From an uncultured Candidatus Saccharibacteria bacterium (GTDB taxonomy: Bacteria; Patescibacteriota; Minisyncoccia; Minisyncoccales; 2-12-FULL-40-12): 64,000 nucleotides of DNA. The position numbers were made by a program, and so were the translations under genes. How positions within the stretch are numbered: position 1 is the stretch's first letter; every line of letters starts with the position of its first letter. Shown here one piece after another: positions 17,571 through 45,960 of this stretch. Under the pieces are notes generated by a model, which searched no databases, was not told the origin of the DNA, and saw only the letters and a program-made list of their open reading frames with translations. The DNA lies in the NCBI GenBank assembly GCA_964518135.1, contig CAZFEY010000001.1, forward strand, positions 2,856 through 66,855, in the 5' to 3' direction.

Positions 17571-17655
17571 TAGAGCGTACGGGGCAAACCTAGGCGCAAT
17601 ACAATAATCAAGTCGAGATAATTAAGGTATTACTGTTAAACAACATACATTATAT

Positions 17656-25662: not shown

Positions 25663-26790
25663 TTACCTAGCGAATGGGTTTGTCCCTCCTCTCACTTCAA
25701 AGTGCAAGTGACAACCAGTTGAAATTCCTGCACCACTCATTCCTGGCTTACCGCCCGTTAAGGCTATAACCTGACCTTGCGAAACTTGCTCGCCCGGACC
25801 CACCATGCTTGTAGCTAAGTGACCATAAAAAGTAACTAGTCCATTGGGATGTAAAATCATAATGTAATTTCCTGCTCCACCGTTCCAGCCATATCTTACT
25901 CTTTGTACTTGTCCTCCGGCCGCTGCATAGATTGGACTATTGCATTTACTGGCAAAATCAACGGCGTTGTGCCAGTGTAAACCTTGAGTTAAAGAGCAAG
26001 ACCCAACAACAGGACATATAAAATAGCTTGAACCGACCGGTATTTGATTCGATGGAACTATTGGCTTGGCAGCTACTGATTGTGACGGCATTTTTCCGCC
26101 CGGCACAACCAAGATGTCTCCTATATAAATATCTTCTTCTTCGGCTAACTCGTTAAAAGCAATAATATCATTCGTCTCTACTTTATAGGTTTTAGCAATA
26201 GCGGCCAAAGTATCGCCCTTTTTAACATAATGTGCCACGCCAGAAATAGGCAAGATGATCAATGACTGGCCCGGCTTTATCTTTGCGCCCCTGCCTAGCT
26301 CATTAGCCCAAAGCAATGTTTCTAAAGTGATATCGAACTTTTCGGCTATACTATTCAAGCTATCTCCATCTTCAACAATATACTCAACAATTTCTGCTCT
26401 GTCGCTCGAAAAATCTTCTTCTTCTCCGATTATCGCACCAAGCGTCTGGCCCGTTGTCATTACCGGAGGAGTAAAAGCCACCAAGCTGTTATTTTGCACA
26501 AATAGCGTATCTGGAGTTTCTTTAACTGCATCGGTCGTCGCCAGACCAACAAAAAGATCGGTTTTATTAACCGAACTTTTTATATCTTCATCCAATAATA
26601 TATTTAACAAATCAACGTTTAATAACGATGCTTGTAAATTATCCTTGACCAATAAGGCGCTTGTTTTCCGCGCAGAAAAAACATTGAAAACAGTAGCGAA
26701 TAAAAGCAAAATTACTACCACCAGCCATAAATGGGAAAAAGGGTCTTTGGCAGATCCTTTTCTCTTAAGCAAACTGATTGTTTTTCTCAT
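25663..26790 (-). CDS. LysM-domain M23 family peptidoglycan endopeptidase
   Basis: Two LysM repeats ('GDSLNSIAEKFDITLETLLWANEL', 'GDTLAAIAKTYKVETNDIIAFNEL'); M23 core 'HNAVDFA...GNYIMILHPNGLVTFYGHL...GCHLHFEV'; start taken at MRKTISLL signal anchor. Confidence 0.85.
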   Translation of the reverse strand: MRKTISLLKRKGSAKDPFSHLWLVVVILLLFATVFNVFSARKTSALLVKDNLQASLLNVDLLNILLDEDIKSSVNKTDLFVGLATTDAVKETPDTLFVQNNSLVAFTPPVMTTGQTLGAIIGEEEDFSSDRAEIVEYIVEDGDSLNSIAEKFDITLETLLWANELGRGAKIKPGQSLIILPISGVAHYVKKGDTLAAIAKTYKVETNDIIAFNELAEEEDIYIGDILVVPGGKMPSQSVAAKPIVPSNQIPVGSSYFICPVVGSCSLTQGLHWHNAVDFASKCNSPIYAAAGGQVQRVRYGWNGGAGNYIMILHPNGLVTFYGHLATSMVGPGEQVSQGQVIALTGGKPGMSGAGISTGCHLHFEVRGGTNPFAR

Positions 26791-26935
26791 TAAAGAGGCT
26801 AAAGCCTCAAAAGAGATTTGTTGTCTAGGAATATTTCTTAAAAATCTTTCAAAAAAATCTTTCCCGACTAGCCTAAGTGGCACGACGCACCACCGGCAAA
26901 CTATGTTTATTAGTTTATCACTACCAGGCATTAAG

Positions 26936-27060
26936 TCAACCCCGTTAGAAACCATCTGTGAAAATTTGCTTACTAAGCATAGAAGCCGTGAGGCGACTCC
27001 GTCTCATAGCTCTCTGTAAAATCGATGGCCATCGCGGGCTTCTAACGGGGTCAACTCCGA
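26936..27060. promoter_or_regulatory. structured element: perfect 11-bp inverted repeat (ccccgttagaa / ttctaacgggg) closing about 100 nt containing 12-bp palindrome cgatggccatcg; candidate riboswitch/leader or small RNA
   Basis: Arms at 26940-26950 and 27040-27050; internal hairpins (gcttagtaagc); lies in 5' leader region of M23 peptidase (minus) and upstream of rsmA (plus). Confidence 0.35.
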
Positions 27061-27977: not shown

Positions 27978-30533
27978 ATGGCTAATAAAAAAATAGTTCT
28001 AGCAATGCTGCTCGCCGTAGTTATTGTTCCTGTATTCTTTTCTTTTGCTTGGGCACAGAACGATAGAGAGCTAGAAGTTGACTACCCGGACATTGGCGGA
28101 ATAGCAGGACCAACCAAAGTTACCGTAGGGCTTCCAGAATACATTAGATATATTTTTAATTTCGTTGTTGGGTTTGCTGGTGTTATTTTATTATACGCCC
28201 TGATAAGGGGAGGCCTTTCTTATTTAGCCTCGGGGGCAAATGTGGCAAAATTAAAAACGGCAAGAGAGCAACTCGGCTCTGTCTTTTTGGGAATAGTAAT
28301 CCTTTTGTCATCTTACATCATCTTAACTACCATTAATCCTCAATTGGCTATTTTAAACCTTCCAATTTTTAGCAATCTGAATTTGGGAGGAGGAACTCCT
28401 GCAACATTCACCACAGACGAAGCGTCTATAATCTATTATGAGATTCCGATTGGACAAATGATAAAAAATGGGGTCTGGAAAACGAGCGCGATAGAAGCAA
28501 TGACCAACATAGATGAAACGGGAATATTAGACGAATTTGAAAAATTTATTACAAGCGAAATTACCACAAGAGATGGAATTTCTATTAAAAGAATCTCTGA
28601 TTTAAATAAATACCTTAAAACATTAGCCGAGAGTTGTAGCTGTAGTGAGATGTCTCCGATCTGTACCAAGCCTAAAAACTTTACCATTGATGTTGGCTGT
28701 ACCGGAGATCCTTGTGAAAAAAATAGAGACAAAATAGAAGACGTCCTAGACATCAATAGCAAGCTAATAGAAAATCCTGACGAGCCAATAAATAGCCTTA
28801 AAGAATTCAATGACAAAATAAAGGATAATCCTGATGAGCCAATAAATAGCCTTAAAGAATTCCTAGAAGAACAAGATAAATTTTTTAACAATCTTGATGT
28901 CCAAGAAAAATTTTCTGAGTGCTTAGAGACTGGGTTTTTAATAACACAGGGTGAATATTTACAATCCGTACGCTACTACGAAGATCAAGGAATTAAAACA
29001 GAGGTCGTCCAGAGCTATATGCCTTCTAAAGGCGACCCATTTACATTTTATTGCACCGTTGGCGGCACAATGATGGATATACCGATAAAGCAAGACGAAC
29101 TTTCCGTACCTATATCGGGTGGAACTGGGTTTGACTTACCGCCATCCGCAACAGAAGAGCCTGAACCATTGAGCTGTCCCGGCGTGGTGCCTATTGGCGA
29201 AATAATAGACGTTGTTGGATCTGCTTCTGTGATATCGAATGAAAACTTAACAGGGCTTACGGAGTTAATCGACGAACTAACAATCGAGATGAGAGATATG
29301 GCCGATAGAATATCGGAGTGCAACGAAGACAGTTGCAAATCACCACAGACTGGCAAGAATGCTGCTAATTGTAAGTGCTTTCCTAATCCTTGTTATATAC
29401 CTCCCGGCGTCCCCTGTCCTCCCGGTTTGGGATTTTGCGTTGGACAGATGTGCATGACCCCTTGTCTCAAGCCATCTCCTGGTAGTTGTGAGGCTAAAAA
29501 TTTTGATGCCCCAAACTATGGCTCACCATGCCCTTTGGGAAGATTGGCTGAATCTTCTGAACCAGGAGATCCCCCAGACATAAAGTCAATGGAAAAAACC
29601 ATTAAAGACATTAAGAGAACTGAAAATACAATTCTTGAAGCTATCGAAGGGCTAAGGCAAGGCTTTTCCAATACGCCCTACGTTGTTGAAACTCCGCAAC
29701 AAATCCCAATAGACTTAGTAGAGGGAGTCAAATGGGTTATGGGATTTTGTAGAAATGAAGATATTGTCAATCCAACCTGGGCAATGGTAAATTGCGGCTT
29801 GGCTACCGGCAATATAGGACCTGATGGCAATGAAATTGCTGGATGCGATCTGCGAAGTTTCTTTTGCTGTACTGGCGATAGGGCAGCAGCAGAAAACGCA
29901 AGACTATCATATTCTAGCGGTGGAGGTGGAGGCGGGGGTGGACAATATGCCGCAACCTATTACACCCCATACGTTGGTCCACCAGTAGCGACTGATGGCG
30001 CATGCAACCAAAGAATCATTACGCAAGCATCAAAATATGACGGAATACTTTATAGTCAAGGATGGAATAAGTCAACATATCCTGCTGAATGCCGAACTCG
30101 AAGTAGGGGCCATTGTTACACGGCTGCGGAAAATAAAGGACCAGAAGGAGTACAATGCCTAGATTGTTCTGGTTTCGCTAGTCGCGTTTATAGAGATCTT
30201 GGTATTCTCCCGCTAGCACCAACTGACCCGAGCGCAGGATGGTGTCATCATGTAGCAGCAATAATAGCCAATAGGTCATATTTCTACGAAATATCAGCGC
30301 AAGATATATTACCAGGAGATTTAGTTACGAATGGCTCTGGTTCTGAAGGAGACCCTATGCATGTTGTTATTTATGAAAGCGGTGATGCCTCAAGAAGATT
30401 TTGGACGTGGCAAGAAGGAGGCGGAGGCGGTGGTGGCCTTCCCGGCTGTAATGGTAAAGTATGTAGAACAGAAAGGACCGCGCGAAGCAATCAGCGATAC
30501 TGGAGAAGAGTAAATGAATGCGATACGTTCTAA
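27978..30533 (+). CDS. secreted fusion protein: VirB2/TrbC-like two-helix pilin-like N-domain + Cys-rich ectodomain + C-terminal NlpC/P60 peptidoglycan hydrolase domain flanked by Gly8 runs
   Basis: Signal peptide; 'YIRYIFNFVVGFAGVILLY...ASGANVAKLKTAREQLGSVFLGIVILLSSYI..TINPQL'; NlpC/P60 Cys 'CLDCSGFASRVY' and His 'GDLV...HVVIY'; GGGGGGGG at aa about 650 and about 815. Confidence 0.6.
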   Translation: MANKKIVLAMLLAVVIVPVFFSFAWAQNDRELEVDYPDIGGIAGPTKVTVGLPEYIRYIFNFVVGFAGVILLYALIRGGLSYLASGANVAKLKTAREQLGSVFLGIVILLSSYIILTTINPQLAILNLPIFSNLNLGGGTPATFTTDEASIIYYEIPIGQMIKNGVWKTSAIEAMTNIDETGILDEFEKFITSEITTRDGISIKRISDLNKYLKTLAESCSCSEMSPICTKPKNFTIDVGCTGDPCEKNRDKIEDVLDINSKLIENPDEPINSLKEFNDKIKDNPDEPINSLKEFLEEQDKFFNNLDVQEKFSECLETGFLITQGEYLQSVRYYEDQGIKTEVVQSYMPSKGDPFTFYCTVGGTMMDIPIKQDELSVPISGGTGFDLPPSATEEPEPLSCPGVVPIGEIIDVVGSASVISNENLTGLTELIDELTIEMRDMADRISECNEDSCKSPQTGKNAANCKCFPNPCYIPPGVPCPPGLGFCVGQMCMTPCLKPSPGSCEAKNFDAPNYGSPCPLGRLAESSEPGDPPDIKSMEKTIKDIKRTENTILEAIEGLRQGFSNTPYVVETPQQIPIDLVEGVKWVMGFCRNEDIVNPTWAMVNCGLATGNIGPDGNEIAGCDLRSFFCCTGDRAAAENARLSYSSGGGGGGGGQYAATYYTPYVGPPVATDGACNQRIITQASKYDGILYSQGWNKSTYPAECRTRSRGHCYTAAENKGPEGVQCLDCSGFASRVYRDLGILPLAPTDPSAGWCHHVAAIIANRSYFYEISAQDILPGDLVTNGSGSEGDPMHVVIYESGDASRRFWTWQEGGGGGGGLPGCNGKVCRTERTARSNQRYWRRVNECDTF
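28773..28863 (+). repeat. two 36-bp near-identical direct repeats (aatcctga[c/t]gagccaataaatagccttaaagaattc) 55 bp apart, in-frame (ENPDEPINSLKEF x2)
   Basis: Direct reading of sequence; 1 mismatch. Confidence 0.8.
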
Positions 30534-30592
30534 AAAATCTTAGCGGAAATATTTTAATAACCCCACTTTGAGTTGTTGATAAAATATTATTT

Positions 30593-33500
30593 ATGAATAA
30601 AAAAAGTATTTATAATGTATTTAAAAAAACTAGCGGCCTGACCATCCCTCTTTTCGCATTAATCTTAGCCACGATTGCGATCTTGTTAGTTGCAACCAAA
30701 AGTGCGGCTCAAATACCATCTCTTTTTCTGCCAAATTTTCCAAGCAGATTAATGTATTTATCGGACGCGATAGCTAATACTAGCCAAGAATTAATCAGTC
30801 CAAATCAAGACATGATAGATCTTGTTAATGAATGTAGCTGCGAATTCTCACAATCCCAATGCAAACAAATTATAACAAATGGACAACCGTCTGGCTGTGT
30901 AACGATTGGGGCTATCGGTAAACCTTGTTCTTTGGTATCTCCAGGAGAAGAAACAGAACCTACGATCCGCAGTTTACAGCGAAAATCTCGTAATTTGGCA
31001 TTGGATTTATCTTACTTGCGAAAACTTCTAATTAAAGAAAAAGAGGCGGGACTAGAAAGACAACTTGAAACATTAAGAAAAGATCCAAGTGCGGGCATTG
31101 ACGACGCTCAAGACCTAAGAGATGCAATTAATATCATCCTTGGAACTTCTGCCGATTACGCAGACGGCGCCCTTTCTAAGGTCATAACAAAAGCGGAGGC
31201 TAATCTAGAAAGACCAAAACAGTGCTCGACCAATGCTTGTACCCCTCATTGCGGCCCAGGAGATAGTTTCTCTTTAAGTGAGTATATGTGTTTACCAGCT
31301 CTTACCTTCGAACTTGGCGAGGTAAAACCAACCGTTATTAATTTCCATGCTGGAATTGAGATTGAGGATTGGGAGCTTGGCAAGATAGAAATAACCAATG
31401 TTAAATTAAATCTTCCAGAGTCAATTGACATACCCGAACTTCCGGGACTAAAAATGCCATCTTTTTCGATATCTGTGCCGGAAATCAAAATTGACTGTCC
31501 AACCAAAAAACAAGAAATTTCCTTCCAAACTCCACAACCCTCTCTGCCAAAAACACCGACGATGAAATTATCCTGCCCAACCTATAATACGACTGCTAGC
31601 TATCAATACCCATCAGACCTTCAACCGGGCAGTGAAAAGTATCGAGAATTCGAATGGTTTTTGGAAACTTTCTCTTGGTTATCGGGCATATGTATGGATG
31701 CGGTATGGGGAGATGGAGATTTACCGGATAGCCAAAAAATGCAATACCCCGATAAATTCAATCAGTCTTTAACTACTTGTTTCGACCCATTTAATGTTGC
31801 TAATAAATTAATACAGGAGTGTAACGAACAGTATGCGAACTATCATCCATCCAACCCACCAAGCGGTCCACCGCCAGTTTATCCTGCCTGTGAATATTGG
31901 GTTAACAAACAACCGGCCGAGTTTGGCAGTATAACAGAAGAACATTGTTTTAAATTTTTTGAAGGATTTGCCGATCCATCAGGAACGCAGGGGTGGGAAG
32001 ATATCGACGGAAACCCTGCAACGAACGATCCAAAAACATTTGACCCTGGAACAAAAGATAAAATATATGACTATCTCGAGCAAAAATACGGAATCACAAT
32101 AGACGACGAACCCCAAGACCAATGTCGTGATAAACTAGACCCTCTACCAACCCTTATTGATTCTTGCAATAAACTTCGCGAGCTACATCCCCAGAAACAA
32201 GCTATAGAATTCCCCGATCAATGTAAGATCTTACCAATATTTTACAATCTTCCAGACTATATCCCTCCCCATCAAATTGCTAGTCCAGAAGTTCTTGAGT
32301 TATTTGCTCAATCTCAATTATTATCAGGGCAACAAATGAACGACCTGCCAAGCAAATCGATTTCCGGTTGCCCCTCTATTGGAGCTCCTTCAATACCTAA
32401 AATACCATTATCTAAGTACTCGATAATTATTCCCGATATCAAGCTACCAACTTTTAAATTGGGTCCGTTCTTCAGAATAAAATTACCTAGTCTAATTTTT
32501 GAGGATTTGATATTTGAAGATATTGAACTATGCAATCTGGATGATTGCCAATTCAAATTCCCCAATTTAAACTTTGAAGCACCAACGTTAACAATACCTC
32601 AAATAGACGTTCCATCGATTAAGCTTGAGAGCTTTAACGTACCTGGCATTCCTAACGATATCGGCAAGGGCATAGAGATAAGTATAAGCCCTATGGAATT
32701 TCAGCCATTTGATTTTGACTTTTCACAGCTGATTAATTTAAATTCTCTGGTTTCTCCAGAATTCCAGACTCCCGATATTTCTCTCCCCAAACCGAAACTG
32801 ACGTTTGGCTTTGAGGGACTTGATATTGATTTCACAAGTTTGCTATCTGGATTATTTGATTTTAACCTTCCGCCAAACCCTGGTCTCGCATGCCTCCCAG
32901 AATTTTGGAATATAGATGGCATACCTATCGCATTCGACTTCCCTGACTATATTTTTTCTTGGCCTGCATTCCCAGATATCCCTGAAATTCCTGGCTGCGC
33001 GGATGCTAAAAAATTCTGCAAAGACATCAATGGTTCTATTCAGAAAATAACTGAACAGGCTGGAGAAATTCAAGAAGTTGTTAATGGCACTATCCAAACT
33101 GAAATCCAAGGCGTTCTTAATATGTTCAAAAATGAGATAGAAAACCAATTAACGGGCGCTATCGAAAGCAAGCTTAACGATATCGCAACAGAAATTAAAA
33201 AAGAAATTTACAATTGGATCCAAAGCAATGCTCCACCATCAACAAGCCTACCCTCAGCTCCGATACCGGGAGTATTCCCAGTAGCTGATGGGCTTTCTTG
33301 TCAAGGACTACCGCCTTTAACTATTGACCTAAAAGATATTCTTGGCGACCTATATATTAACACGATAGAATTGGAAGATTATTTACCACCGGGGTTGAAT
33401 CTGGAAAAAATTTCTATTCCCTGGCCAGATGAGTTAAAAAACTTAGATCTTTCAACGATAAACAATCCTCTATGCTCGGACTGTAAAGGATTAAGTTATG

Positions 33501-33766
33501 AACTACCAACCGTTCCTCTCTCTGGTCTTAAATATGAAAAAAGTGTACCAATTGAGCTCCCCGGATTCCAATATCCTTCTCCACAAATTAATTTCGGGAG
33601 TCCTTTACCAAATGCAACTGCCTGTGTTAGCCAACCGCCGACTGGGAACGCTTGCGGCGCAGCTCCTGGCGACATGCAAACCGACCTTACTGGTTCTGAT
33701 GGCATACAAGAGCTCAGCCAAAAACTTAACGATGCTTCTAAAAAGATAAGGGATGTATTACAATAA
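30593..33766 (+). CDS. large (1057 aa) N-terminally membrane-anchored Cys-rich extracellular protein
   Basis: Single N-terminal TM; shares 'ECSC...C...GC...PC' module with 27978.. protein; many Pro/Cys; no catalytic motif recognised. Confidence 0.55.
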   Translation: MNKKSIYNVFKKTSGLTIPLFALILATIAILLVATKSAAQIPSLFLPNFPSRLMYLSDAIANTSQELISPNQDMIDLVNECSCEFSQSQCKQIITNGQPSGCVTIGAIGKPCSLVSPGEETEPTIRSLQRKSRNLALDLSYLRKLLIKEKEAGLERQLETLRKDPSAGIDDAQDLRDAINIILGTSADYADGALSKVITKAEANLERPKQCSTNACTPHCGPGDSFSLSEYMCLPALTFELGEVKPTVINFHAGIEIEDWELGKIEITNVKLNLPESIDIPELPGLKMPSFSISVPEIKIDCPTKKQEISFQTPQPSLPKTPTMKLSCPTYNTTASYQYPSDLQPGSEKYREFEWFLETFSWLSGICMDAVWGDGDLPDSQKMQYPDKFNQSLTTCFDPFNVANKLIQECNEQYANYHPSNPPSGPPPVYPACEYWVNKQPAEFGSITEEHCFKFFEGFADPSGTQGWEDIDGNPATNDPKTFDPGTKDKIYDYLEQKYGITIDDEPQDQCRDKLDPLPTLIDSCNKLRELHPQKQAIEFPDQCKILPIFYNLPDYIPPHQIASPEVLELFAQSQLLSGQQMNDLPSKSISGCPSIGAPSIPKIPLSKYSIIIPDIKLPTFKLGPFFRIKLPSLIFEDLIFEDIELCNLDDCQFKFPNLNFEAPTLTIPQIDVPSIKLESFNVPGIPNDIGKGIEISISPMEFQPFDFDFSQLINLNSLVSPEFQTPDISLPKPKLTFGFEGLDIDFTSLLSGLFDFNLPPNPGLACLPEFWNIDGIPIAFDFPDYIFSWPAFPDIPEIPGCADAKKFCKDINGSIQKITEQAGEIQEVVNGTIQTEIQGVLNMFKNEIENQLTGAIESKLNDIATEIKKEIYNWIQSNAPPSTSLPSAPIPGVFPVADGLSCQGLPPLTIDLKDILGDLYINTIELEDYLPPGLNLEKISIPWPDELKNLDLSTINNPLCSDCKGLSYELPTVPLSGLKYEKSVPIELPGFQYPSPQINFGSPLPNATACVSQPPTGNACGAAPGDMQTDLTGSDGIQELSQKLNDASKKIRDVLQ

Positions 33767-33776
33767 CATAACATCA

Positions 33777-35465
33777 ATGAAGCAGGAAAAAGATAAAATT
33801 AATAAAACCGTCTTTCTTGTGATCGCAATTTTGTTTTTGTCTTTTTCTTTTAGCGATTATGCAGTAGCGGCATTAGCTAAAAAATGTGGCCCCGATAATC
33901 CTAGCGACCCCGCTTGTCTCCCCGGACAAAAGTGCGTAGAACAAGAATTGGGATCACCACCCGAAACAGAGTGGAGGTGTGCCAGGCCATTGGAAATTAT
34001 TTACCCTCAAATCCCAGGACAACCTGCGACAACAACGCCAGAAACGGTTGCTACTGGCCTCTCTCAATACTTTAGATATATTTTCCTATTTGCAGTTTTT
34101 CTTATCGGATTAGTAATCCTGGCCGTTTTTGTTTATTACGGAACAAGATATATGTCGTTGGCTTCGACCGGAAACGTGTCCGGACTCGCCGATGCCAAGC
34201 AAGGTATTAGCGCGGCTCTATTAGGAACTGCAATCTTGGTGTGCTCCTATGTTATATTTAATACTATAAATCCACAACTAACTATCCTTTCATTGCCAAG
34301 CGCGGCAATCTTAGAACAAGTAATCCCACCCGGCGTTTACGTCTGCAATTACGAATACAGCGGTAATTCAGTTACAAGCAAGGCTGTCAGTGAAAATCTT
34401 ATAGCCGATGACAGTATTGGCACTATTCTGTCTGCTTACATTTCTAAAGCAGGGGAAGAGCAAATCGAGATTGTTAAATTAATGCAAAGCATATTTGTTG
34501 ATCCGGACAATAATGATCATACCTGTCCAAAGGTCAATTTTTCTGGTAATTTCCAAAACTTTGCAGTCGAAGAAAAGAATACAATGTTTGTTGTCCCATC
34601 TATAAGATTTTCTGCTCAACTTAAAGCTGGTAGTACCGACGAATACGAGTATGTAAAAAAACCGTCCTACGAATACGGCTTGATTTTACACGAGAAAGAT
34701 GATTTAAGAGGTAAATGTTTAGAATATCCGAATATTAACGATTACGGTGGACAAATTTACACCGAGGTCACGTTTGAAAATGGAAGAATGATGATTGGCG
34801 ATACTCCTTATAGCACCGGAGGGACATATGTGAATCCAATAAAGGACTTTGAGGCGGGGGTGGGAATTCCAAACAATAACTTTTCCAAGAATCGCGCCAG
34901 ATCAATAACAATTTTTAAAAGACCAGAAATAAAACCATCCTCAACAGCCCAAGGATTAACATTACATATGTGCGCTGATTACGACAGAACCGGAATGTGT
35001 CCACAGTCTCTGTATGATGCTGGGGCAATAGACACGACAACGGGGGAACCTAAATATCCAGCTAGTGCTAATTTCCCACCTAACTTAGCACCGCCAGCAG
35101 ACCCTAAAGATACAGACGTTTATTCTCTTTATTCCAGTGATCCCAATTTGCCCATCGACCCTCGCTTAGAGAACGTAGCTCCGGGGACAGGAAACGGTTA
35201 TGGTATACGATCAACTCGAATCGATCCCGACAATTCAGTATTCGCGATTTTAATGGATGCCGAGAATAATTGCTCGATTCTTAAAGGCGATAATCCCGAT
35301 ATTGGAAATATAGCAATCAATAAATGTGATTTTGACGTCGATCAACAGGTAGGCGGTCGCTGTGACTCAAAACACGGTCTTTTGTGGTGGCACTGGGGCG
35401 GATTCACTGATAAATGCGTGCCCTGCGTTACCACAATACAAGTTTTTGAAGGTAAAGTATTGTAA
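33777..35465 (+). CDS. secreted fusion protein: VirB2/TrbC-like pilin-like domain + about 400-aa C-terminal ectodomain
   Basis: Signal peptide, 'YFRYIFLFAVFLIGLVILAVFVYY...ASTGNVSGLADAKQGISAALLGTAILVCSYVIFNTINPQL' aligns with 27978.. N-domain; start taken at MKQEKDK. Confidence 0.55.
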   Translation: MKQEKDKINKTVFLVIAILFLSFSFSDYAVAALAKKCGPDNPSDPACLPGQKCVEQELGSPPETEWRCARPLEIIYPQIPGQPATTTPETVATGLSQYFRYIFLFAVFLIGLVILAVFVYYGTRYMSLASTGNVSGLADAKQGISAALLGTAILVCSYVIFNTINPQLTILSLPSAAILEQVIPPGVYVCNYEYSGNSVTSKAVSENLIADDSIGTILSAYISKAGEEQIEIVKLMQSIFVDPDNNDHTCPKVNFSGNFQNFAVEEKNTMFVVPSIRFSAQLKAGSTDEYEYVKKPSYEYGLILHEKDDLRGKCLEYPNINDYGGQIYTEVTFENGRMMIGDTPYSTGGTYVNPIKDFEAGVGIPNNNFSKNRARSITIFKRPEIKPSSTAQGLTLHMCADYDRTGMCPQSLYDAGAIDTTTGEPKYPASANFPPNLAPPADPKDTDVYSLYSSDPNLPIDPRLENVAPGTGNGYGIRSTRIDPDNSVFAILMDAENNCSILKGDNPDIGNIAINKCDFDVDQQVGGRCDSKHGLLWWHWGGFTDKCVPCVTTIQVFEGKVL

Positions 35466-35486
35466 TATTGAATATTTAAAAAACCG

Positions 35487-37070
35487 ATGATAGAGCGTCT
35501 TATCGCCGTATTCACGGCTATCCCAACCCTTATAATTGCGGCTATCTATCTGCTCTTTATTTTGATTACTGGGTTTTTTGTGTCTGTGGCAAGTGGTCTT
35601 TTAGAATGGATAATCAGCCCAAACTTTATTTCTTTAAGCTATACCAAGCCCTGTCTAGCAATCAACAATTACCAGCCTACCGGATCCGCAGATACTTGCA
35701 ACCCCGTAATTGGGCTTGGTTTAGATACTATCCAGCAATTTGTTAACATGTTATTGGTGTTGATACTAATATATATAGCGCTCTCAATAGCCCTTAGAGC
35801 TGGCGGAGGCAAAGCTGAAAAATTATTTCCGCAACTAATCATTGTGGCTCTCTTAGTCAATTTCGCTCCAGTTTTCATAGGTTTAGTTGTTGATGCGGCC
35901 AATATTTTAATGAATTATTTCTTAACCCCTTTACAGGGCGGATTTAGCCAGATCGGGGCTCAGTTATCTGTATTTTGGGATGCGATAGTAAAAAACTTCT
36001 CGAAAATATGGTCTGACCTACCAAGCCAAATGACGCTATTGGGCATGGGATCTGTAATAGTATTTGTAAATATTACCGTGGCGACGATCTTATTCTTGTT
36101 CGCAGGAATCCTTTTTGTCAGGTTTATAGCTATCTGGGTAATTGTCATCTTGTCTCCTCTGGCTTTTGTCTTTTCGATCCTACCTCAAACCAATAATCTG
36201 TATAAAATGTGGGAAAAACAGCTAGTCCAGTGGTCATTTGTAGGAATACCGATCGCGTTTTTTATGTATCTCGGCGTTTCAAGCCTATCTGTACTAACGC
36301 AGAACTTTAATGCCGCCTCGATACAAGCCCCGAATTTAAATTCTTCAGTATCGCAGCTTTTGAGTCAATTACTCCCTTATTTCACTGTGGTTATTTTCTT
36401 GGTAATAGGACTCTTTGTGGGAATTTCCATGTCGGCGATGGGCGCTAACGCTGTCGTAAAAGGTATGGGAAAGGGAGCCGCTGCGGTTGGGAACTGGAGC
36501 AAAGGAAAGATTGGCGACTTAGGAAACAGGGTCAGGCAAGGCGCAAAGAATCGGGCAGGGCAATTCACATTTGCTCAAAGACAATCTATGAATGCCGGAA
36601 GAACAAAATTACAAGCCTTTACGTCTGGAACAATGGCAGCGGCTGGTTGGACTCATTCGAAACAGAAAAGCACCGGTATGGTATACCGTGCCGCAAGAAA
36701 AACAGGCTACGGAAAATTGCGCGCAGCATGGGCAACTACCGCTGCGACCACTGGTCTCAATAGAGGTATAAATACTGCTTTAAGAGGTCAAATTAAGCTT
36801 CAAGCATATAAAAAGGGACTGGCGCAAGGCATGACCAAAAAACAAGCAGTTAAGTACGCCCAACAATACACCGCGCTCTTGCAAAAACTACCTCAAAAAC
36901 GAAAAGATAGTGCGAAAAAGGCATTTAAGAAGGGAGCTGGAACAATATTATGGAGAGCTCCCATGGCGGTAACTAGAGGAATGAGTGGCGCTATCTTATT
37001 GGCTTTAAAAGAAATATATAAAGAATTAAGCAAAAAGAAGAAAACAAAAAAAACGAAAAAAAAGCCATAA
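35487..37070 (+). CDS. polytopic membrane protein, VirB6/TrbL-like by architecture (6-7 TM + basic hydrophilic C-tail)
   Basis: Multiple hydrophobic helices then long Lys/Ala/Gly-rich tail ending KKKTKKTKKKP; position within T4SS-like locus. Confidence 0.4.
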   Translation: MIERLIAVFTAIPTLIIAAIYLLFILITGFFVSVASGLLEWIISPNFISLSYTKPCLAINNYQPTGSADTCNPVIGLGLDTIQQFVNMLLVLILIYIALSIALRAGGGKAEKLFPQLIIVALLVNFAPVFIGLVVDAANILMNYFLTPLQGGFSQIGAQLSVFWDAIVKNFSKIWSDLPSQMTLLGMGSVIVFVNITVATILFLFAGILFVRFIAIWVIVILSPLAFVFSILPQTNNLYKMWEKQLVQWSFVGIPIAFFMYLGVSSLSVLTQNFNAASIQAPNLNSSVSQLLSQLLPYFTVVIFLVIGLFVGISMSAMGANAVVKGMGKGAAAVGNWSKGKIGDLGNRVRQGAKNRAGQFTFAQRQSMNAGRTKLQAFTSGTMAAAGWTHSKQKSTGMVYRAARKTGYGKLRAAWATTAATTGLNRGINTALRGQIKLQAYKKGLAQGMTKKQAVKYAQQYTALLQKLPQKRKDSAKKAFKKGAGTILWRAPMAVTRGMSGAILLALKEIYKELSKKKKTKKTKKKP

Positions 37071-37095
37071 AATAATAAATTTAAAATAAAAAACT

Positions 37096-37566
37096 ATGCC
37101 CGAAGAATTTGATATTCAAAAAGTAAAAGAAAATTACCCTGAAATACTAGAGATAATACCATCAGAAATCATAGACCTAGCCACTTCGGAAGATACTCAA
37201 AATAGCATCGCTGGTATTTGTATTGATAACGACATAGAAAGCGAAGAGATCATTGAAAATATTGCTTATTATATAGGTCTATCTTTGTTGGGCGAGTTGC
37301 CTATTCAACAATTAACAGACACTCTTGTTGAGAAAGTAGGATTAGAGCATGGCTTAGCGGAAAAAATATATACAGAAATCGATCAGGTAATATTTGATAA
37401 GGTTCGAAGTTCTTTGGAAGAATTATACAAGAAAAGAGATCAAGAAATAACAGAAGGAGAAATCGATGAATTATCCGAAGAACAAGAAGATTCTAGCGCG
37501 CCAGAAACGCAAAAAGCAGGAGATCAAGAATCAACAAAAGACACTTACCGAGAAAATATTGAATAA
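37096..37566 (+). CDS. acidic hypothetical protein
   Basis: pI clearly acidic, no motifs. Confidence 0.45.
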   Translation: MPEEFDIQKVKENYPEILEIIPSEIIDLATSEDTQNSIAGICIDNDIESEEIIENIAYYIGLSLLGELPIQQLTDTLVEKVGLEHGLAEKIYTEIDQVIFDKVRSSLEELYKKRDQEITEGEIDELSEEQEDSSAPETQKAGDQESTKDTYRENIE

Positions 37567-37634
37567 GTAAACTCAATTCCTCCGGAATTAAACAGGCTTG
37601 ATTCTGACGAATAAAAAAGAGGGCGAGATTCCTC

Positions 37635-37997
37635 TCACCCTTCTTCATCTTCATCCTCCTCTTCGTCTTCATCCTCCTCCTCTTTTCTTCGAGGTTTAGG
37701 TTTAGACGATTTGAACTTAGATCGTTTTTTGTTGGTACCTTTCTTGGGTTTCTCATCGATCTCTACCTGGAAAACAGCTTCTAGGAAACCGATGATTATC
37801 ATCCAAATAATGTACCAAATTGCCATGATCGCGATCAGTAAACCGCTACCTATCGCGATCAAAATATTACCACCCATTTTCCAGCCAGAACCATTTCTGG
37901 TTGTTCTGCGAGGGATACGTCCGTAACGAGACTTTCTTCTATTGACGCGTCCACCGACATCAACAATGTCCTCCCCAAACTGTTCTTCATCCGTCAT
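37635..37997 (-). CDS. small membrane protein with poly-Glu/Asp tail (possible NfeD-like partner of SPFH protein)
   Basis: Two TM helices; translationally coupled (overlap) with upstream SPFH gene. Confidence 0.4.
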   Translation of the reverse strand: MTDEEQFGEDIVDVGGRVNRRKSRYGRIPRRTTRNGSGWKMGGNILIAIGSGLLIAIMAIWYIIWMIIIGFLEAVFQVEIDEKPKKGTNKKRSKFKSSKPKPRRKEEEDEDEEEDEDEEG

Positions 37998-38974
37998 TAT
38001 TTGCCTCCCTTAGCTAAGGAAATGAGCTGGGCAAGCGTAGCATCTACACCTTGCCCACCAGCGAATTCGACTCTCTGGCCGGCATTTGCAGCATATGCTA
38101 TCTGGGCCGGAGTGAGATCGATAGCCGCCTTGTAAAGCATCTGCTTAAGCGCTGGATCCTTGTTAATCTCTTTTTGCAGATCGATTGTCGACTTGCCAGA
38201 GATTTTTTCCAGGGCTCGCATTATTGCCCCAACTCCACCCTTAGTAATAGCTTCTGCTTCATGTTCAGCGGCATCGGCTTTACGCAAAGCAGTCTGAACG
38301 AGGGCTCGTGCCTCTAATAGATCTTCGCTTAGGTCAAAATCACGAATAGTGATTTGTTCCAGGTGAATACCTATTTTATCGAGAGCCTCAATGATTTTCG
38401 CGAGCTCTCCTTGCGGTAGCTGATTTTTCAAATCAACCCCAGAACCCTTCATTGTTAAGCCTTCATCTAAGTGCAGTGTGTTGAGGTAGGCTCGGATAGC
38501 GTTTTCGAAAAGATTTCGAGCAACACTCATCCAATTCTCAACAGAGTAGGTTGCTCTGTACGCGCCTGACCAAGAGTTGCCAGTTGCGTCTTCGTACGCT
38601 TCATCTGGACTTTTGACCCGTACTTGCGCTATCACACCGCGAGGTGTCGCGCTCCCATCTTTGAAATCTACCTCAATCGAAGTATCTCCTTCGAAAAGTT
38701 TGACCTCTTGGATCCAAATCGGAATAATATTCCGAATTGTTTCTATGCCCGGAATGATCCATTGCAACCCGGGACGAAGTGATCGGAAAAATTTTCCAAA
38801 TAGCTCCGTTACAAATCTCTCTTCTTCGCCGATTGATCTGAATCCATAGAAAACCGAGATCAACACAACGGTCAAGATACCACCGCCCCAATAATGACCG
38901 GCTCGAAACAGCACAAGGTCGATGATCGCACCAATAATGATAGCGATAATCATAAAGACAGTTAGAGTAGGCAT
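37997..38974 (-). CDS. SPFH/band-7 (stomatin/HflK-like) membrane protein
   Basis: N-terminal TM then band-7 core 'VTELFGKFFRSLRPGLQWIIPGIETIRNI...IEVDFKD'. Confidence 0.8.
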   Translation of the reverse strand: MPTLTVFMIIAIIIGAIIDLVLFRAGHYWGGGILTVVLISVFYGFRSIGEEERFVTELFGKFFRSLRPGLQWIIPGIETIRNIIPIWIQEVKLFEGDTSIEVDFKDGSATPRGVIAQVRVKSPDEAYEDATGNSWSGAYRATYSVENWMSVARNLFENAIRAYLNTLHLDEGLTMKGSGVDLKNQLPQGELAKIIEALDKIGIHLEQITIRDFDLSEDLLEARALVQTALRKADAAEHEAEAITKGGVGAIMRALEKISGKSTIDLQKEINKDPALKQMLYKAAIDLTPAQIAYAANAGQRVEFAGGQGVDATLAQLISLAKGGK

Positions 38975-38989
38975 TGTTTTCTCCTTATC

Positions 38990-39062
38990 GGTGTATTTTA
39001 CCTATTAGGTACTATATTAAGTATAGCACCTTATGGTTTTTTTGTCAATACCAAGTGGGGCA
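38990..39062 (-). promoter_or_regulatory. sigma70-like promoter (TTGACA-N17-TATACT) with conserved downstream TTAATATAGTACCTAA motif
   Basis: Minus strand: TTGACAAAAAAACCATAAGGTGCTATACTTAATATAGTACCTAATAGG...AAGGAG...ATG; near-identical to 5094-5150 element. Confidence 0.45.
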
Positions 39063-39114
39063 TACTTAAAACTGGCTTTTTTGAATGTATTTTGTGTTAT
39101 AATTTAAGAAGTGA

Positions 39115-39180
39115 TAAACTTATAGAACAAGTTTGTTCCTGATGAAATAGAATAAGTTTGTTATTAGCGCAATAAAGCAA
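39115..39180. promoter_or_regulatory. three 25-bp-phased direct repeats with core AAGTTTGTT inside short palindromes (gAACAAGTTTGTTc / aatAAGTTTGTTatt / agcAAGTTTGTTgct); candidate operator array
   Basis: Cores at 39119, 39144, 39169 (exact 25-bp spacing); same palindrome family at 63066-63098. Confidence 0.5.
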
Positions 39181-39205
39181 GTTTGTTGCTAATGCAATAA
39201 AGCAT

Positions 39206-39622
39206 ATGCAATTTGATGTCCCTCAATTTGTTGAGTCTGAAACCAAAATAGCTGGATCTTTAACATTTAGACAGGTTTTATATCTTGCTGCTGCTGGTAT
39301 TGTCGTAATGGTTTCTTATTTCGGCCTGGCCAAAACCAACCTTGGTTTATTTATATTTATTACTGTTTTGGCAATCGTTTTTGGTTTGGCGTTCGCATTC
39401 CTTAAGATTGGTGGATTCTCTCTGGCAGTCTTTCTGAAGAATCTAATATTTTTCTTGATATCTTCCAAGGTTTATCTGTGGAGAAAACCTGCTGTGGCAC
39501 CCAAGGTTATCCAGAAAAGAATCGCTTCACCAGCAGAAGCAGAGAAAGAGAAAACCCTTAAAATGGGTGGAGAAAGCCGACTTAACAAGCTTTCAACCCA
39601 AATAGAAACAAACACCCAATAA
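39206..39622 (+). CDS. PrgI/VirB3-like small two-TM protein
   Basis: 'LTFRQVLYLAAAGIVVM' then second TM; size and position immediately upstream of VirB4 as in Gram-positive T4SS. Confidence 0.45.
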   Translation: MQFDVPQFVESETKIAGSLTFRQVLYLAAAGIVVMVSYFGLAKTNLGLFIFITVLAIVFGLAFAFLKIGGFSLAVFLKNLIFFLISSKVYLWRKPAVAPKVIQKRIASPAEAEKEKTLKMGGESRLNKLSTQIETNTQ

Positions 39623-39627
39623 CAACT

Positions 39628-40272
39628 ATGGCCGAACTTACTACGCAAAAGTTTTTAGAAATATCTCAAATCAAGGAAGGTGTTATCGTTCTGCGAAATA
39701 AAGCTCTGCGAGGAATCTTAATGGTGTCTTCGGTTAACTTCGCGTTGAAGTCTACTGACGAACAAAGCGCTATCCTGTATCAATTCCAAAGTTTTTTAAA
39801 TGCGCTCGATTTTTCGTGTCAAATAGTTGTTCAATCAAGAAGATTAAATATCACCGGTTATTTAGAAAAGTTGGAAGAACTAGAACAAAAACAAAAAAAT
39901 AAACTTTTAAAATTACAAACGAAAGAGTATAAAGATTTTATTAAACAATTGGTTGAAGAGAAAGAAATACTAACTAAAAGTTTCTTTGTGGTTGTACCAT
40001 ATTCTATTTCGGAAATGATTGGTCCTGAATCTTCCCAGAAAGGATTATTAGCGCAAGCTAAATTGCCAACTTTGACAGAAGAAAATTTCCAAAGATGCAA
40101 AACGCAACTATGGCAAAGGATGGAGTATGTGGCTCTAGGATTAAGAAGGTGCGGACTTCAATCTGTCCCCCTGACAACGCCCGAAATCGTCGAGCTTTTT
40201 TGGAGCTTACATCATCCTAAAGAAGCAGAAGTGGGATTTTACCCGGAATTTCCAATGGAATTAATTGTGTAA
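39628..40272 (+). CDS. VirB4/TrbE N-terminal-domain-like protein (separate ORF)
   Basis: 'LRGILMVSSVNFALKSTDEQSAILYQFQSFLNALDFSCQIVVQS' resembles N-terminal region of VirB4-family ATPases. Confidence 0.45.
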   Translation: MAELTTQKFLEISQIKEGVIVLRNKALRGILMVSSVNFALKSTDEQSAILYQFQSFLNALDFSCQIVVQSRRLNITGYLEKLEELEQKQKNKLLKLQTKEYKDFIKQLVEEKEILTKSFFVVVPYSISEMIGPESSQKGLLAQAKLPTLTEENFQRCKTQLWQRMEYVALGLRRCGLQSVPLTTPEIVELFWSLHHPKEAEVGFYPEFPMELIV

Positions 40273-40279
40273 TCCAATA

Positions 40280-42067
40280 ATGAAACTACCATTTTTTAAA
40301 AAAAGAGGTGAAGACCAATTAGTCGCTGAGGTTGCGCTACCAGAAACAGTGGGAATTAGCGACATTATAGCACCTTCTTCGATCGAGGTATCTCCTAATT
40401 ATGTAAAGATAGGAGAAAGATTAGCCAAAACATTTTTTATCTTTTCTTATCCTAGCTCCTTAACAACTGGGTGGTTTTCGCCAATTATCAATTTAGACAC
40501 AACAATGGATATTGGTATTTTTATTCACCCAGTAGATATGGCGCAGGTTCTTAAGCAGTTAAGGAAAAAAGTTACCGAAGTGCAGGCCGATATAATAGAA
40601 AGAGAGGAAAAAGGTTTAATTCGAGACCCTCAAACAGAAATGGCATTCCGTAATTTAGAAGAATTGCGAGAAAAATTCATATCAGCGCAAGAAAGAATGT
40701 TTAGGGTGGGTATATATATAACAATTTATGCCGACAGCGAAAAACAACTTACCGAAACCGAAGTGTTCTTAAGATCGGCGATAGAGGGTAGATTGGTTTA
40801 TTCAAAACCTGCAACGTTCCAGCAAAAAAAAGGCTTTATTTCAACTTCTCCTTACGGGATAGACGCTTTGCAAATTACCACCTCAATGAATACAGCTCCG
40901 GTATCTAGTGCTTTTCCGTTTGTATCTTTCGATTTGAGCTCGAACGACGGTATTTTATACGGAATCAACCAGCATAATAATTCCTTAATTTTATTCGATA
41001 GATTTACGCTGGAAAACTCCAACGCTGTTATCTTCGGAACTTCAGGCTCTGGAAAAAGCTATTTGGTAAAGTTGGATGCCTTACGATCTCTAATGATTGG
41101 CGCTAATGTTATTATTATTGACCCCGAAAATGAATACAAGGCCTTAGCTGATACGGTCGGAGGTTCTTTCTTTAACATTTCCCTATCTTCTAATGACCGA
41201 ATTAACCCATTTGACTTACCCCCACCAAGAGAAGGAGAAAGACCGGAAGACGTCTTAAGGTCTAACACAATGAATTTGGTCGGATTATTAAGGATTATGC
41301 TAGGAGGATTAACGCCCGAAGAAGATGCAATAATAGACAGAGCCCTTACTGAAACTTATGCCGCCAAAGACATCACGCCAGATAGTGATTTTTCTGCGGC
41401 TACACCTCCATTACTTTCGGACTTAGAAGATGTTCTATCGACAATGGAGGGTGCAGAAAACTTAACTATAAAGCTAAGAAAGTTTACTCAAGGCACTTAC
41501 TCATCGTTCTTTAATCAGCACTCTAATGTTTCTATGGATAACAATATGATCGTTTTTGGCATAAGAGACATGGAAGAACAATTAAGGCCGATTGCGATGT
41601 ATATAATTATGAGGTATATCTGGAATCAGGTTAGATCTATACTAAAAAAAAGGGTTTTGATTATAGATGAAGCATGGTGGCTTATGCAAACAGAAGATGG
41701 TGCATCTTTCTTGTATGGATTAGTAAAAAGGTCTAGAAAGTACTGGCTAGGAGTCACAACAATAACTCAAGACGTTGGCGATTTTATGAAGTCAGAATAT
41801 GGAAAACCTATCATTACCAACTCTGCATTGAAGATTTTGATGAAGCAATCTCCGGCCACAATCAATCTTGTTCAACAAACGTTTAACCTTACAGAAGAAG
41901 AAAAATATATTCTGCTTGAACCGTCTGTGGGAGAGGGCATATTCTTTGCCGGGCAAAAACATGTAGCCATAAAAGTTATGGCATCTTACACTGAAGACCA
42001 AATTATAACTACGGACCCGGGGCAATTAGCGAAAATCAAAAGAGCAAAAGCAGATTTAACCGAATAA
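40280..42067 (+). CDS. VirB4/TrbE/CagE-family type IV secretion ATPase (ATPase domain)
   Basis: Walker A 'GTSGSGKS', Walker B/'DEAW' hallmark 'VLIIDEAWWLM'; start at internal ATG. Confidence 0.85.
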   Translation: MKLPFFKKRGEDQLVAEVALPETVGISDIIAPSSIEVSPNYVKIGERLAKTFFIFSYPSSLTTGWFSPIINLDTTMDIGIFIHPVDMAQVLKQLRKKVTEVQADIIEREEKGLIRDPQTEMAFRNLEELREKFISAQERMFRVGIYITIYADSEKQLTETEVFLRSAIEGRLVYSKPATFQQKKGFISTSPYGIDALQITTSMNTAPVSSAFPFVSFDLSSNDGILYGINQHNNSLILFDRFTLENSNAVIFGTSGSGKSYLVKLDALRSLMIGANVIIIDPENEYKALADTVGGSFFNISLSSNDRINPFDLPPPREGERPEDVLRSNTMNLVGLLRIMLGGLTPEEDAIIDRALTETYAAKDITPDSDFSAATPPLLSDLEDVLSTMEGAENLTIKLRKFTQGTYSSFFNQHSNVSMDNNMIVFGIRDMEEQLRPIAMYIIMRYIWNQVRSILKKRVLIIDEAWWLMQTEDGASFLYGLVKRSRKYWLGVTTITQDVGDFMKSEYGKPIITNSALKILMKQSPATINLVQQTFNLTEEEKYILLEPSVGEGIFFAGQKHVAIKVMASYTEDQIITTDPGQLAKIKRAKADLTE

Positions 42068-42074
42068 TAAGACC

Positions 42075-42473
42075 ATGCCAGAAGAAATCGAGGAATCGCA
42101 AGAACCACAAGAAACAGAAGAAATCCAGGAGAGTGGCGGAGCAATGAACCTTTTAAGCCCAGAAGGGCTTGTAATGATGTCTGTGGCAGTAGTTATTGAC
42201 TTGATCGGCTTGATTATAGTGTGCGTAGGATTAGATGATTTTGGCATCACCGATATAATAGGTATGATTTTTATAGGCTCTTGGATGTTTTTCAGGTCTG
42301 GCGCAATGCCAGAAAGAAAAACTCCCTCGAAAAAATCGAAGGGAGCTGGGAAAACGGCAGAGCGAAATGTATTAAAAAGATTCGGCCTAACAGGGCTAGC
42401 CGAGCTAATCCCGTACTTAGGCGCACTACCTTGGTGGACTATAATGGTTTATAAAGAATTAACCGAAAGCTAA
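42075..42473 (+). CDS. small acidic-N-terminus membrane protein
   Basis: Two hydrophobic helices; last gene of plus-strand block. Confidence 0.45.
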   Translation: MPEEIEESQEPQETEEIQESGGAMNLLSPEGLVMMSVAVVIDLIGLIIVCVGLDDFGITDIIGMIFIGSWMFFRSGAMPERKTPSKKSKGAGKTAERNVLKRFGLTGLAELIPYLGALPWWTIMVYKELTES

Positions 42474-45806: not shown

Positions 45807-45960
45807 TCTGTGTAAAACCAATTATTGACTTGTGGAAAAATAAATAATTTAAAATTAAATTTATTATCCACAAAAAATAAACAACAAAAAACATCAAAAA
45901 AAACAACTTTTAAAGCTTAATAATAATTAAAGATTATTATCCACACAAACAACTATAATA
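45807..45960. promoter_or_regulatory. oriC-type region: two perfect DnaA boxes TTATCCACA (45868-45876, 45941-45949) plus degenerate box, AT-rich
   Basis: Exact consensus 9-mers read in sequence; classical dnaA-dnaN intergenic location. Confidence 0.7.

Follow-up and report, generated by a model that had tools for sequence, protein, structure and literature searches.

The question raised by the DNA described here is what a type IV secretion system (T4SS) can be doing in a genome where no conjugation genes are found beside it. In a 64-kb stretch of contig CAZFEY010000001.1 (hereafter the window, meaning the whole stretch that was analysed), eleven open reading frames (ORFs) at positions 27978-42473 form a cluster which an original prediction, made from the letters alone, had read as a non-conjugative secretion or surface-appendage system of a candidate phyla radiation (CPR) cell. 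An ORF check recovered every ORF named in that prediction at the same coordinates, and most of the assignments hold by profile, fold or family-level tests. Our analysis makes it very likely that the cluster is a vertically inherited chromosomal T4SS of the Patescibacteria clade, which derives from the monoderm MPF-FATA (pGO1/CTn2-like) conjugation machinery, and that it adjoins the origin of replication in a Parcubacteria/Paceibacteria genome; it would serve epibiotic life rather than conjugation.

This reading, including its non-conjugative part, is supported both by the tests reported here and by published conclusions (PMC12102498, PMC10633639) and, because the system has been described in these articles of 2023-2025, it is correct but not new. 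In the Saccharibacterium S. epibionticum the T4SS genes SEML1_0006-0019, pilin genes included, are essential for epibiotic growth, and the system is closest to Gram-positive conjugative systems, although neither a coupling protein nor a relaxase could be recognised in it (Wang et al., 2023; PMC10633639). A survey of 3,035 genomes placed about 98% of the VirB4s in a Patescibacteria clade that branches within MPF-FATA (Quinonero-Coronel et al., 2025; PMC12102498). According to this survey, virB4 in Patescibacteria is accompanied by TrsD, PrgI/VirB3, VirB6 and VirB2-like pilins, VirB1 (CD419-type) is associated with virB4 mainly in Paceibacteria, relaxases are nearly absent, VirB8 is rarely found, homologues of the type IV coupling protein (T4CP) lie far from virB4 in most genomes, and the commonest T4SS neighbours in Paceibacteria and Microgenomatia are dnaA, dnaN, rnpA, ksgA and rpmH (PMC12102498). 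A FEMS review of 2025 and a PNAS perspective of 2024 repeat this picture and call the function unknown. The locus adds nothing to this published headline, and its remaining interest lies in pilin-stalk-enzyme fusions with modular heads. Long pilins within the locus, head swapping, an SPFH neighbour and inversions about the origin were not found in the part of the Patescibacteria T4SS literature open to full-text and term searches. Apparently undescribed is the fusion of pilin-like subunits to large Cys-rich stalks, one of them with an exchangeable wall-cutting enzyme at its end; the main text of PMC12102498 mentions neither the SPFH neighbour nor the pilin fusions.

Putative membrane motor and chromosomal setting

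Three transcription units make up the cluster, namely a plus-strand run of five genes with gaps of 10-59 nt, a minus-strand pair, and a second plus-strand run of four genes with gaps of 5-7 nt. Lengths are in amino acids (aa), and TM stands for transmembrane:

27978-30533, plus: pilin-stalk-hydrolase fusion, 851 aa
30593-33766, plus: anchored Cys-rich protein of a lineage-restricted family, 1057 aa, N-terminal TM anchor, 30 Cys in the ectodomain
33777-35465, plus: second extended pilin, 562 aa, with signal peptide, short Cys-rich N-terminal segment, pilin domain and ~390-aa ectodomain whose fold found no match
35487-37070, plus: VirB6/TrbL-like polytopic membrane protein, 527 aa, basic disordered C-terminal tail
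37096-37566, plus: acidic soluble protein of no recognised family, 156 aa, 42 D+E; its gene is the next one after virB6 in 13 of 36 related loci
37635-37997, minus: small membrane protein with charged tail, 120 aa, co-transcribed with the SPFH gene
37997-38974, minus: SPFH/Band_7 membrane scaffold protein, 325 aa (Band_7, E 2e-16)
39206-39622, plus: PrgI (VirB3-like), 138 aa, two TM helices (Pfam PrgI, 36.2 bits against a gathering cutoff of 27)
39628-40272, plus: TrsD/TraC-like protein, 214 aa, a free-standing homologue of the VirB4 N-terminal domain (TrsD NF041427, E 3.5e-5; PF26593 TraC-like on record)
40280-42067, plus: VirB4 ATPase of CD1110/MPF-FATA type, 595 aa from the ATG at 40280 (NF045971, motifs, PDB match)
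42075-42473, plus: small membrane protein, 132 aa, last gene of the prgI-trsD-virB4 operon; homologues after virB4 in about 10 related loci

The second plus-strand run contains the putative motor. Its PrgI passes the Pfam cutoff, in agreement with the predicted PrgI/VirB3-like identity, and its VirB4 reaches 370 bits with the NCBIfam model NF045971 (conju_CD1110; cutoff 325), finds its best PDB match in the Thermoanaerobacter VirB4 structure 4AG5 (E 4e-40) and carries the expected Walker A (GTSGSGKS, residue 253) and Walker B (DEAW, residue 463) motifs. Identity of this VirB4 to the best 119 non-identical homologues listed out of 8000 significant ones is 64-86%, which indicates strong purifying selection, and among the matches listed the nearest homologues carrying a source name, likewise 64-86% identical, all come from Patescibacteria. 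The NF045971 score, the PDB match and these named homologues together suggest a placement among the Patescibacteria VirB4s, and TrsD and PrgI/VirB3 adjoin virB4 with gaps of only 5 and 7 nt, as in the T4SSs of that clade. The 214-aa ORF matches the TrsD/TraD family as well as the N-terminal ~100-230 positions of monoderm VirB4 models; the predicted likeness to a VirB4 N-terminal domain is therefore real, but rather than an oddity the ORF is a normal separate gene of a known family. A frameshifted or split VirB4 was rejected, because a stop codon and a 7-nt gap separate this ORF from virB4, the best 120 of the 8000 significant VirB4 homologues are 551-620 aa long, and TrsD is an established family.

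The VirB6/TrbL-like assignment of the 527-aa protein was upheld at the family level. The protein itself gave no Pfam match; TrbL/VirB6 (PF04610) was matched by 13 of its 28 relatives (best E 4e-10), and its AlphaFold2 (AF2) model (pLDDT 71) is closest to TrwI/VirB6 of R388 (Foldseek probability 1.00, TM-score 0.57-0.59 over ~260 columns). Its profile produced only spurious coiled-coil matches from the basic tail when compared with PDB sequences, and a sequence search of the PDB with the 214- and 156-aa proteins found no match. The original prediction had regarded the order prgI then virB4, together with a hydrolase and VirB6, as monoderm-style, and both the component tests and the published MPF-FATA placement agree with this view.

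A VirB6-like profile search of one-genome-per-species Patescibacteria assemblies yielded 66 loci in other genomes, including Nealsonbacteria, Wildermuthbacteria, Gribaldobacteria and Minisyncoccales, and the synteny comparison showed that the same backbone recurs across them. Its first half reads (short pilin), (959-aa coiled-coil TM protein), (comM), M23/LysM on the minus strand, ksgA, extended pilins, virB6, and its second half (156-aa), (SPFH on the minus strand), prgI, trsD, virB4, (132-aa), extended pilins, then jag, yidC and rnpA on the minus strand, dnaA, dnaN. Of the 53 loci whose upstream sequence is long enough, 45 have both ksgA and M23/LysM no more than 9 kb ahead of virB6. Downstream counts were taken over the 36 loci with at least 4 kb beyond virB6, where prgI(-trsD-virB4) follows in 15 and dnaN-dnaA, in the orientation opposite to that of the window, in another 15. 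In loci extending far enough (L007, L011, L012) virB4 was found beyond jag on the opposite strand, and this order points to an inversion about the origin with the T4SS genes split across oriC; judged from gene order, such an inversion splits the cluster in many relatives. The arrangement virB6 (with or without SPFH), then dnaN and dnaA (both minus), rnpA, yidC and jag (all plus) was seen in L007, L011-L013, L017, L018, L025, L026, L030, L035, L037, L039, L045 and L053, and past jag the minus strand carries either virB4 (in the same three loci) or extended-pilin genes.

The SPFH operon had been described as inserted into the locus. SPFH occurs between virB6 and prgI in 11 of the 36 loci that extend far enough downstream, and likewise in both loci (M15_4 and C39_2) that hold positional orthologues of the 851-aa protein (see below), and thus represents a conserved neighbour rather than a chance insertion. 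The best promoter-like site of the region (39048-39020) sits upstream, and the best terminator-like hairpin (37641-37620) downstream, of the SPFH pair.

None of the sizeable ORFs in the 64 kb gave a Pfam or NCBIfam family match to a relaxase, a T4CP (VirD4/TcpA), VirB8/TcpC or an integrase, so that, at the level of sequence families, the earlier impression of a locus lacking visible relaxase, VirD4 and VirB8/TcpC genes holds for the whole window. Nor was a complete conjugative module of relaxase plus VirD4, which the original prediction had named as contrary to its reading, found within the 64 kb. Mobile-element boundaries (integrase, repeats, a tRNA-adjacent boundary) were likewise not found, and the flanks consist of housekeeping genes. 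Since the shared backbone occupies the ksgA...jag-yidC-rnpA-dnaA site in dozens of related genomes, the cluster appears to be vertically inherited core DNA and not an integrative and conjugative element (ICE). A decayed ICE, stripped of relaxase, coupling protein and integrase, would explain why the VirB4, PrgI, TrsD and VirB6 families all descend from monoderm conjugative elements, but such an origin is extremely improbable given the same ksgA / jag-yidC-rnpA-dnaA site across the species-level genomes of the 66-genome set, the 64-86% VirB4 identity in the best 119 non-identical homologues listed, the ordinary composition, a window free of integrase, repeats or a tRNA-adjacent boundary, and the single ancient acquisition in the published phylogeny (PMC12102498). 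An ICE or horizontally acquired island was also rejected on synteny and composition.

At 100% identity, both the VirB4 and the VirB6-like protein match NCBI entries from Parcubacteria group bacterium GW2011_GWA1_36_12 (groundwater metagenome, SRR1658343 / PRJNA268031). On one side the cluster is bounded by ksgA, with PNPase, a DksA-like protein, ComM, the M23/LysM peptidase and KsgA as core housekeeping genes of the upstream flank, and on the other by jag-yidC-rnpA-dnaA-dnaN, where Jag, YidC, RnpA, DnaA, DnaN, PBP1, TyrRS and RuvC form an equally conventional downstream flank. Its GC content (0.39-0.42) is ordinary for the window, and its composition is not anomalous. Three flanking features matter for the argument:

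24016-25572, plus: comM, transformation-associated Mg-chelatase-like helicase
25663-26955, minus: M23/LysM peptidase
45807-45960: dnaA-dnaN spacer, 154 nt, with perfect DnaA boxes (TTATCCACA) at 45864 and 45937 and a 1-mismatch box at 45831

With its DnaA-box cluster (45831-45945) the spacer is the probable oriC, which places the end of the T4SS cluster ~3.4 kb from the probable origin. In most related loci, too, the comM and M23/LysM genes lie directly ahead of ksgA and the T4SS, and a functional link of either to the T4SS (DNA uptake; a second wall hydrolase) is possible. Elsewhere in the window, a giant 2390-aa ORF (5554-12726, minus) with only marginal Pfam matches (CarboxypepD_reg-like, deoxyhypusine-synthase fragment) possibly encodes a large surface protein, and a 413-aa protein (51557-52798, minus) has two lamin-tail (LTD) domains (E 4e-27).

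Pilin-domain fusions and their exchangeable heads

The first and third genes of the cluster encode proteins in which a predicted VirB2-like pilin domain is followed by long C-terminal parts:

851-aa protein, aa 1-28: signal peptide
851-aa protein, aa 30-129 (nt 28065-28364): VirB2-like two-helix pilin domain with a near-invariant TINPQL motif at its end, then a disordered linker
851-aa protein, aa ~150-632 (nt 28425-29873): Cys-rich module, then a Gly linker
851-aa protein, aa ~670-851 (nt 29985-30530): NlpC/P60 head with Cys730 and His795
562-aa protein, aa 70-174 (nt 33984-34298): pilin domain

For the 851-aa protein a VirB2/TrbC-like N-terminal and an NlpC/P60 C-terminal domain had been proposed, and both were borne out, the former by matches of 35 of its 45 relatives to T4SS_pilin (PF18895), the latter by the NlpC/P60 fold together with the catalytic Cys and His motifs DCSGF and HVVIY. 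Topology prediction showed a signal peptide and a hydrophobic hairpin made of two helices, and the protein contains 33 cysteines. Membrane-anchored, encoded in a T4SS operon and carrying a peptidoglycan-hydrolase domain with intact catalytic residues, the protein would by its sequence features qualify as a VirB1-type hydrolase. Its Cys-rich middle module found no specific fold match, only generic helical bundles.

Within this family ~610 N-terminal residues are kept, comprising pilin domain, linker and a Cys-rich module with ~20 invariant cysteines, while the 180-230 aa that follow the Gly linker vary in type. Among the 45 family members the heads belong to Peptidase_C39_2 (16), NlpC/P60 (7), M15_4 (2) and M74 (1), and ~17 are unclassified. 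The N-terminal parts of the two M15_4-bearing members are as similar to that of the window protein (53-54% identity) as are those of NlpC/P60-bearing members (53-55%), whereas their heads share only 18-19% identity with the window head and are unrelated to it. The M15_4 and C39_2 proteins also hold the same position in their loci, in the order ksgA, X, ~1100-aa protein, pilin fusion, virB6, small gene, SPFH (minus). A constant N-terminal part at a constant locus position in spite of unrelated heads identifies these proteins as positional orthologues with swapped catalytic heads. The ~17 members whose ~185-aa head gave no Pfam match (P0139, P0142, P0146-P0153, P0156, P0158, P0160, P0161, P0163-P0165) share the conserved pattern SAHYGG...SYAIDI...HIHI, which recalls the LAS (M15/M74) zinc peptidases. 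An assignment of these 17 heads to LAS/M15 metallopeptidases was not adopted; the H...D...HxH arrangement is suggestive, but there was no Pfam match and the hhalign comparison with the M15/M74 tails was not significant.

The second pilin-like fusion, at 33777, was substantiated by its pilin domain, which shares 44% identity with its counterpart in the 851-aa protein (E 2e-21; hhalign E 1.6e-39). Its C-terminal domain is not kin to the 851- or 1057-aa proteins, as profile-profile comparison ruled this out, and a PDB sequence search with the 562-aa protein found no match. Between the two fusions lies the 1057-aa protein, whose predicted TM anchor and 30 cysteines were confirmed; it matched neither Pfam nor PDB, and its family is small, with 94 representatives in a collection of 1.84 billion proteins. 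An hhalign comparison (probability 95.8%, E 7e-9) aligned its residues 55-147 with residues 190-282 of the 851-aa protein as a homologous stretch. A paralogous relationship of the two was rejected, since BLASTP found nothing and profile-profile comparison showed only this common module of ~90 aa.

The window contains three pilin-domain ORFs (851, 562 and 139 aa), the third of which lies 11 kb upstream of the main cluster between tRNA-Arg (16843-16915) and tRNA-Lys (17497-17571):

17036-17455, plus: stand-alone short VirB2-like pilin, 139 aa, with signal peptide (ANA/Q), Cys-containing N-terminal segment and two TM helices

This ORF alone fits the size of known pilins (~70-120 aa mature), as the 851- and 562-aa proteins fit the VirB2 topology but not the size, and it is a candidate for the major pilin of the system. 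In many related loci its homologues adjoin a gene like that of the 959-aa protein, ahead of comM and ksgA. The 959-aa protein itself (20737-23616, plus) consists of ~700 aa of highly charged coiled coil, in which the block EQQRWEIEEKRR.VEKERWEWEAEIGKVKD occurs twice as an internal duplication, one TM helix (700-729) and a ~230-aa ectodomain; it has no Pfam match, neighbours the short pilin in related loci too, and is possibly part of an extended T4SS.

Long pilins are the rule in this group. A total of 91 pilin-domain ORFs was found, three of them copies of the window's 562-aa gene on its source contig. Of the 88 in the related loci, 78 are 299-1289 aa long with the domain at the N-terminus, and those of 126-198 aa are mostly of the upstream stand-alone type. 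PF18895 was matched by 60 of 73 long pilin relatives and PF04956 (TrbC/VirB2) by 4. A VirB4-matching ORF of 1272 aa in L056 and pilin-domain ORFs of 1126 and 1289 aa in L064 and L067 suggest further fusions in more distant relatives, VirB4 with another domain in the first case and very long extended pilins in the others.

Assembly, rival functions and meaning

By analogy with the R388 architecture, PrgI, TrsD and a VirB4 hexamer would form a cytoplasmic-membrane motor on a base of VirB6. VirB4 may extract pilin domains from the membrane and stack them into a short pilus or stalk across the cell's own wall, with the 139-aa pilin as the bulk subunit and the 851- and 562-aa extended pilins as minor, tip or base subunits, unless the latter remain membrane-anchored. 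Because the pilin hairpin puts both termini outside after signal-peptide cleavage, the fused C-terminal domains should be extracellular, which fits their cysteine richness, and those of the 851- and 562-aa proteins would display disulfide-rich ectodomains. Most economically, the NlpC/P60 head would take the role of VirB1/PrgK/CD419 and cut the peptide stems of the cell's own peptidoglycan for assembly. It possibly also cuts the host bacterium's wall where the two cells meet, an alternative target raised by the swapping of heads on a constant stalk. The 1057-aa anchored protein, which has a ~90-aa module in common with the 851-aa protein, probably contributes to a stalk or to adhesion, the membrane complex may have SPFH as its scaffold, and the system as a whole would serve epibiotic life through protein export or the exchange of macromolecules with the host.

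Several points weigh against a system of this kind. The role of the T4SS has been called 'completely unknown' even in Saccharibacteria (PMC11665869). The 851- and 527-aa proteins of the window fall individually below Pfam thresholds and were assigned through family-level matches and AF2 models with pLDDT 71-72, and no VirB8/TcpC-like component was recognised by sequence in the cluster. The absence of T4CP and relaxase covers the 64 kb, and their presence elsewhere in the genome is possible. Finally, rather than forming a pilus, the 562- and 851-aa pilin-domain proteins may be nothing more than exoproteins anchored in the membrane.

Other functions have to be weighed against secretion or exchange in epibiotic life. 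A DNA-uptake machine like H. pylori ComB or archaeal Ced, importing host DNA or nucleotides that the cell cannot make, would be in keeping with comM (24016-25572) upstream, which recurs there in many related loci, with the comF, recG and radA genes carried by T4SS loci of class ABY1 (PMC12102498), with nucleotide acquisition as a candidate role in the PNAS perspective (PMC11665869), and with a weak, sub-threshold resemblance of VirB4 to CedB (66 bits against a cutoff of 700). We nevertheless consider DNA uptake unlikely. The resemblance of VirB4 to CedB reflects generic ATPase homology, the conjugative CD1110 family being by far the best match; ksgA and the M23/LysM gene on the opposite strand separate comM from the cluster, in which no ComEC-like channel or DNA-binding component was found; and S. 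epibionticum cannot do without its T4SS but stays viable after deletion of comEC, which abolished competence.

The 851-aa protein and its head-swapped orthologues might alternatively be polymorphic anti-host effectors, the pilin-like domain serving as a handle for recognition and extraction by VirB4 and the head being delivered to lyse or perforate the host wall. T4SSs of the Xanthomonas type deliver peptidoglycan-hydrolase effectors and kill bacteria. Moreover, the ~610-aa N-terminal part is conserved at 53-55% identity, in an unchanged locus position, with a head that may be NlpC/P60, M15_4, M74 or C39_2, and the near-invariant TINPQL motif with the disordered linker could be a processing site. 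Yet no immunity gene is apparent beside it, the following position being always taken by the gene of a ~1000-1150-aa anchored protein, and there is no evidence of cleavage or release, which leaves this role rather doubtful. About equally tentative is an 'enzymatic pilus' in this Paceibacteria sub-lineage, in which the extended pilins would enter the filament by their VirB2-like hairpin and carry a disulfide-rich stalk with a plug-in peptidase head (NlpC/P60, M15, M74, C39-like), exchanged to match the wall chemistry of the host. If true, such a pilus would be a wall-breaching device for an epibiont, and a term search of the available Patescibacteria T4SS literature did not find this class of pilin-enzyme fusion.

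The vertically inherited, non-conjugative T4SS proposed here as serving epibiotic life belongs to a class of systems without which the one genetically tractable relative cannot grow epibiotically. In Parcubacteria-type genomes pilin and cell-wall hydrolase are united in one polypeptide with an exchangeable catalytic head, and this fusion offers a testable handle on own-wall versus host-wall action, through head specificity on muropeptides, cleavage at TINPQL and localisation of the fusion.

Comparison with known systems

With other Patescibacteria-clade T4SSs the locus shares a VirB4 nested in MPF-FATA, TrsD and PrgI directly upstream of it, VirB6, VirB2-like pilins, the absence of a relaxase, the occurrence of a VirB1 (CD419-type) function with virB4 as in Paceibacteria, and proximity to dnaA, dnaN, rnpA and ksgA. 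Saccharimonadia, however, have arrays of short divergent pilins, while here and in the 66 related loci most in-cluster pilins are long fusions, one of which in the window carries the hydrolase otherwise scored as VirB1. Likewise, the trs region of pGO1/pSK41 and CTn2 (CD1110), MPF-FATA systems of Firmicutes, have the same order of VirB3-like, TrsD and VirB4 genes, and our VirB4 passes the CD1110 model; a membrane-anchored NlpC/P60-type hydrolase and a VirB6-like polytopic protein are also common to both. In contrast to these elements, the present locus has no relaxase, T4CP or oriT context and forms part of the chromosomal core at the origin rather than of a mobile element, and whereas Gram-positive conjugative systems lack VirB2, pilin-domain proteins are present here.

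The 851-aa protein resembles PrgK (pCF10), TraG (pIP501), CD419 and Tn916-like Orf14/CTn1-Orf17 in combining an N-terminal membrane segment with a C-terminal NlpC/P60 or CHAP domain in a T4SS operon. It differs from them in that its membrane segment appears to be a VirB2-like two-helix pilin domain, that a ~480-aa Cys-rich module without fold match lies in between, and that positional orthologues carry unrelated peptidase folds in place of this head. Similar to the VirB2/TrbC/TraA pilins of diderms, the pilin-domain proteins described here have a signal peptide and two hydrophobic helices that form a hairpin around a short cytoplasmic loop, but compared to the roughly 70-120 aa of those mature pilins the extended ones measure 562-851 aa and carry long C-terminal domains that are predicted from topology to be extracellular.

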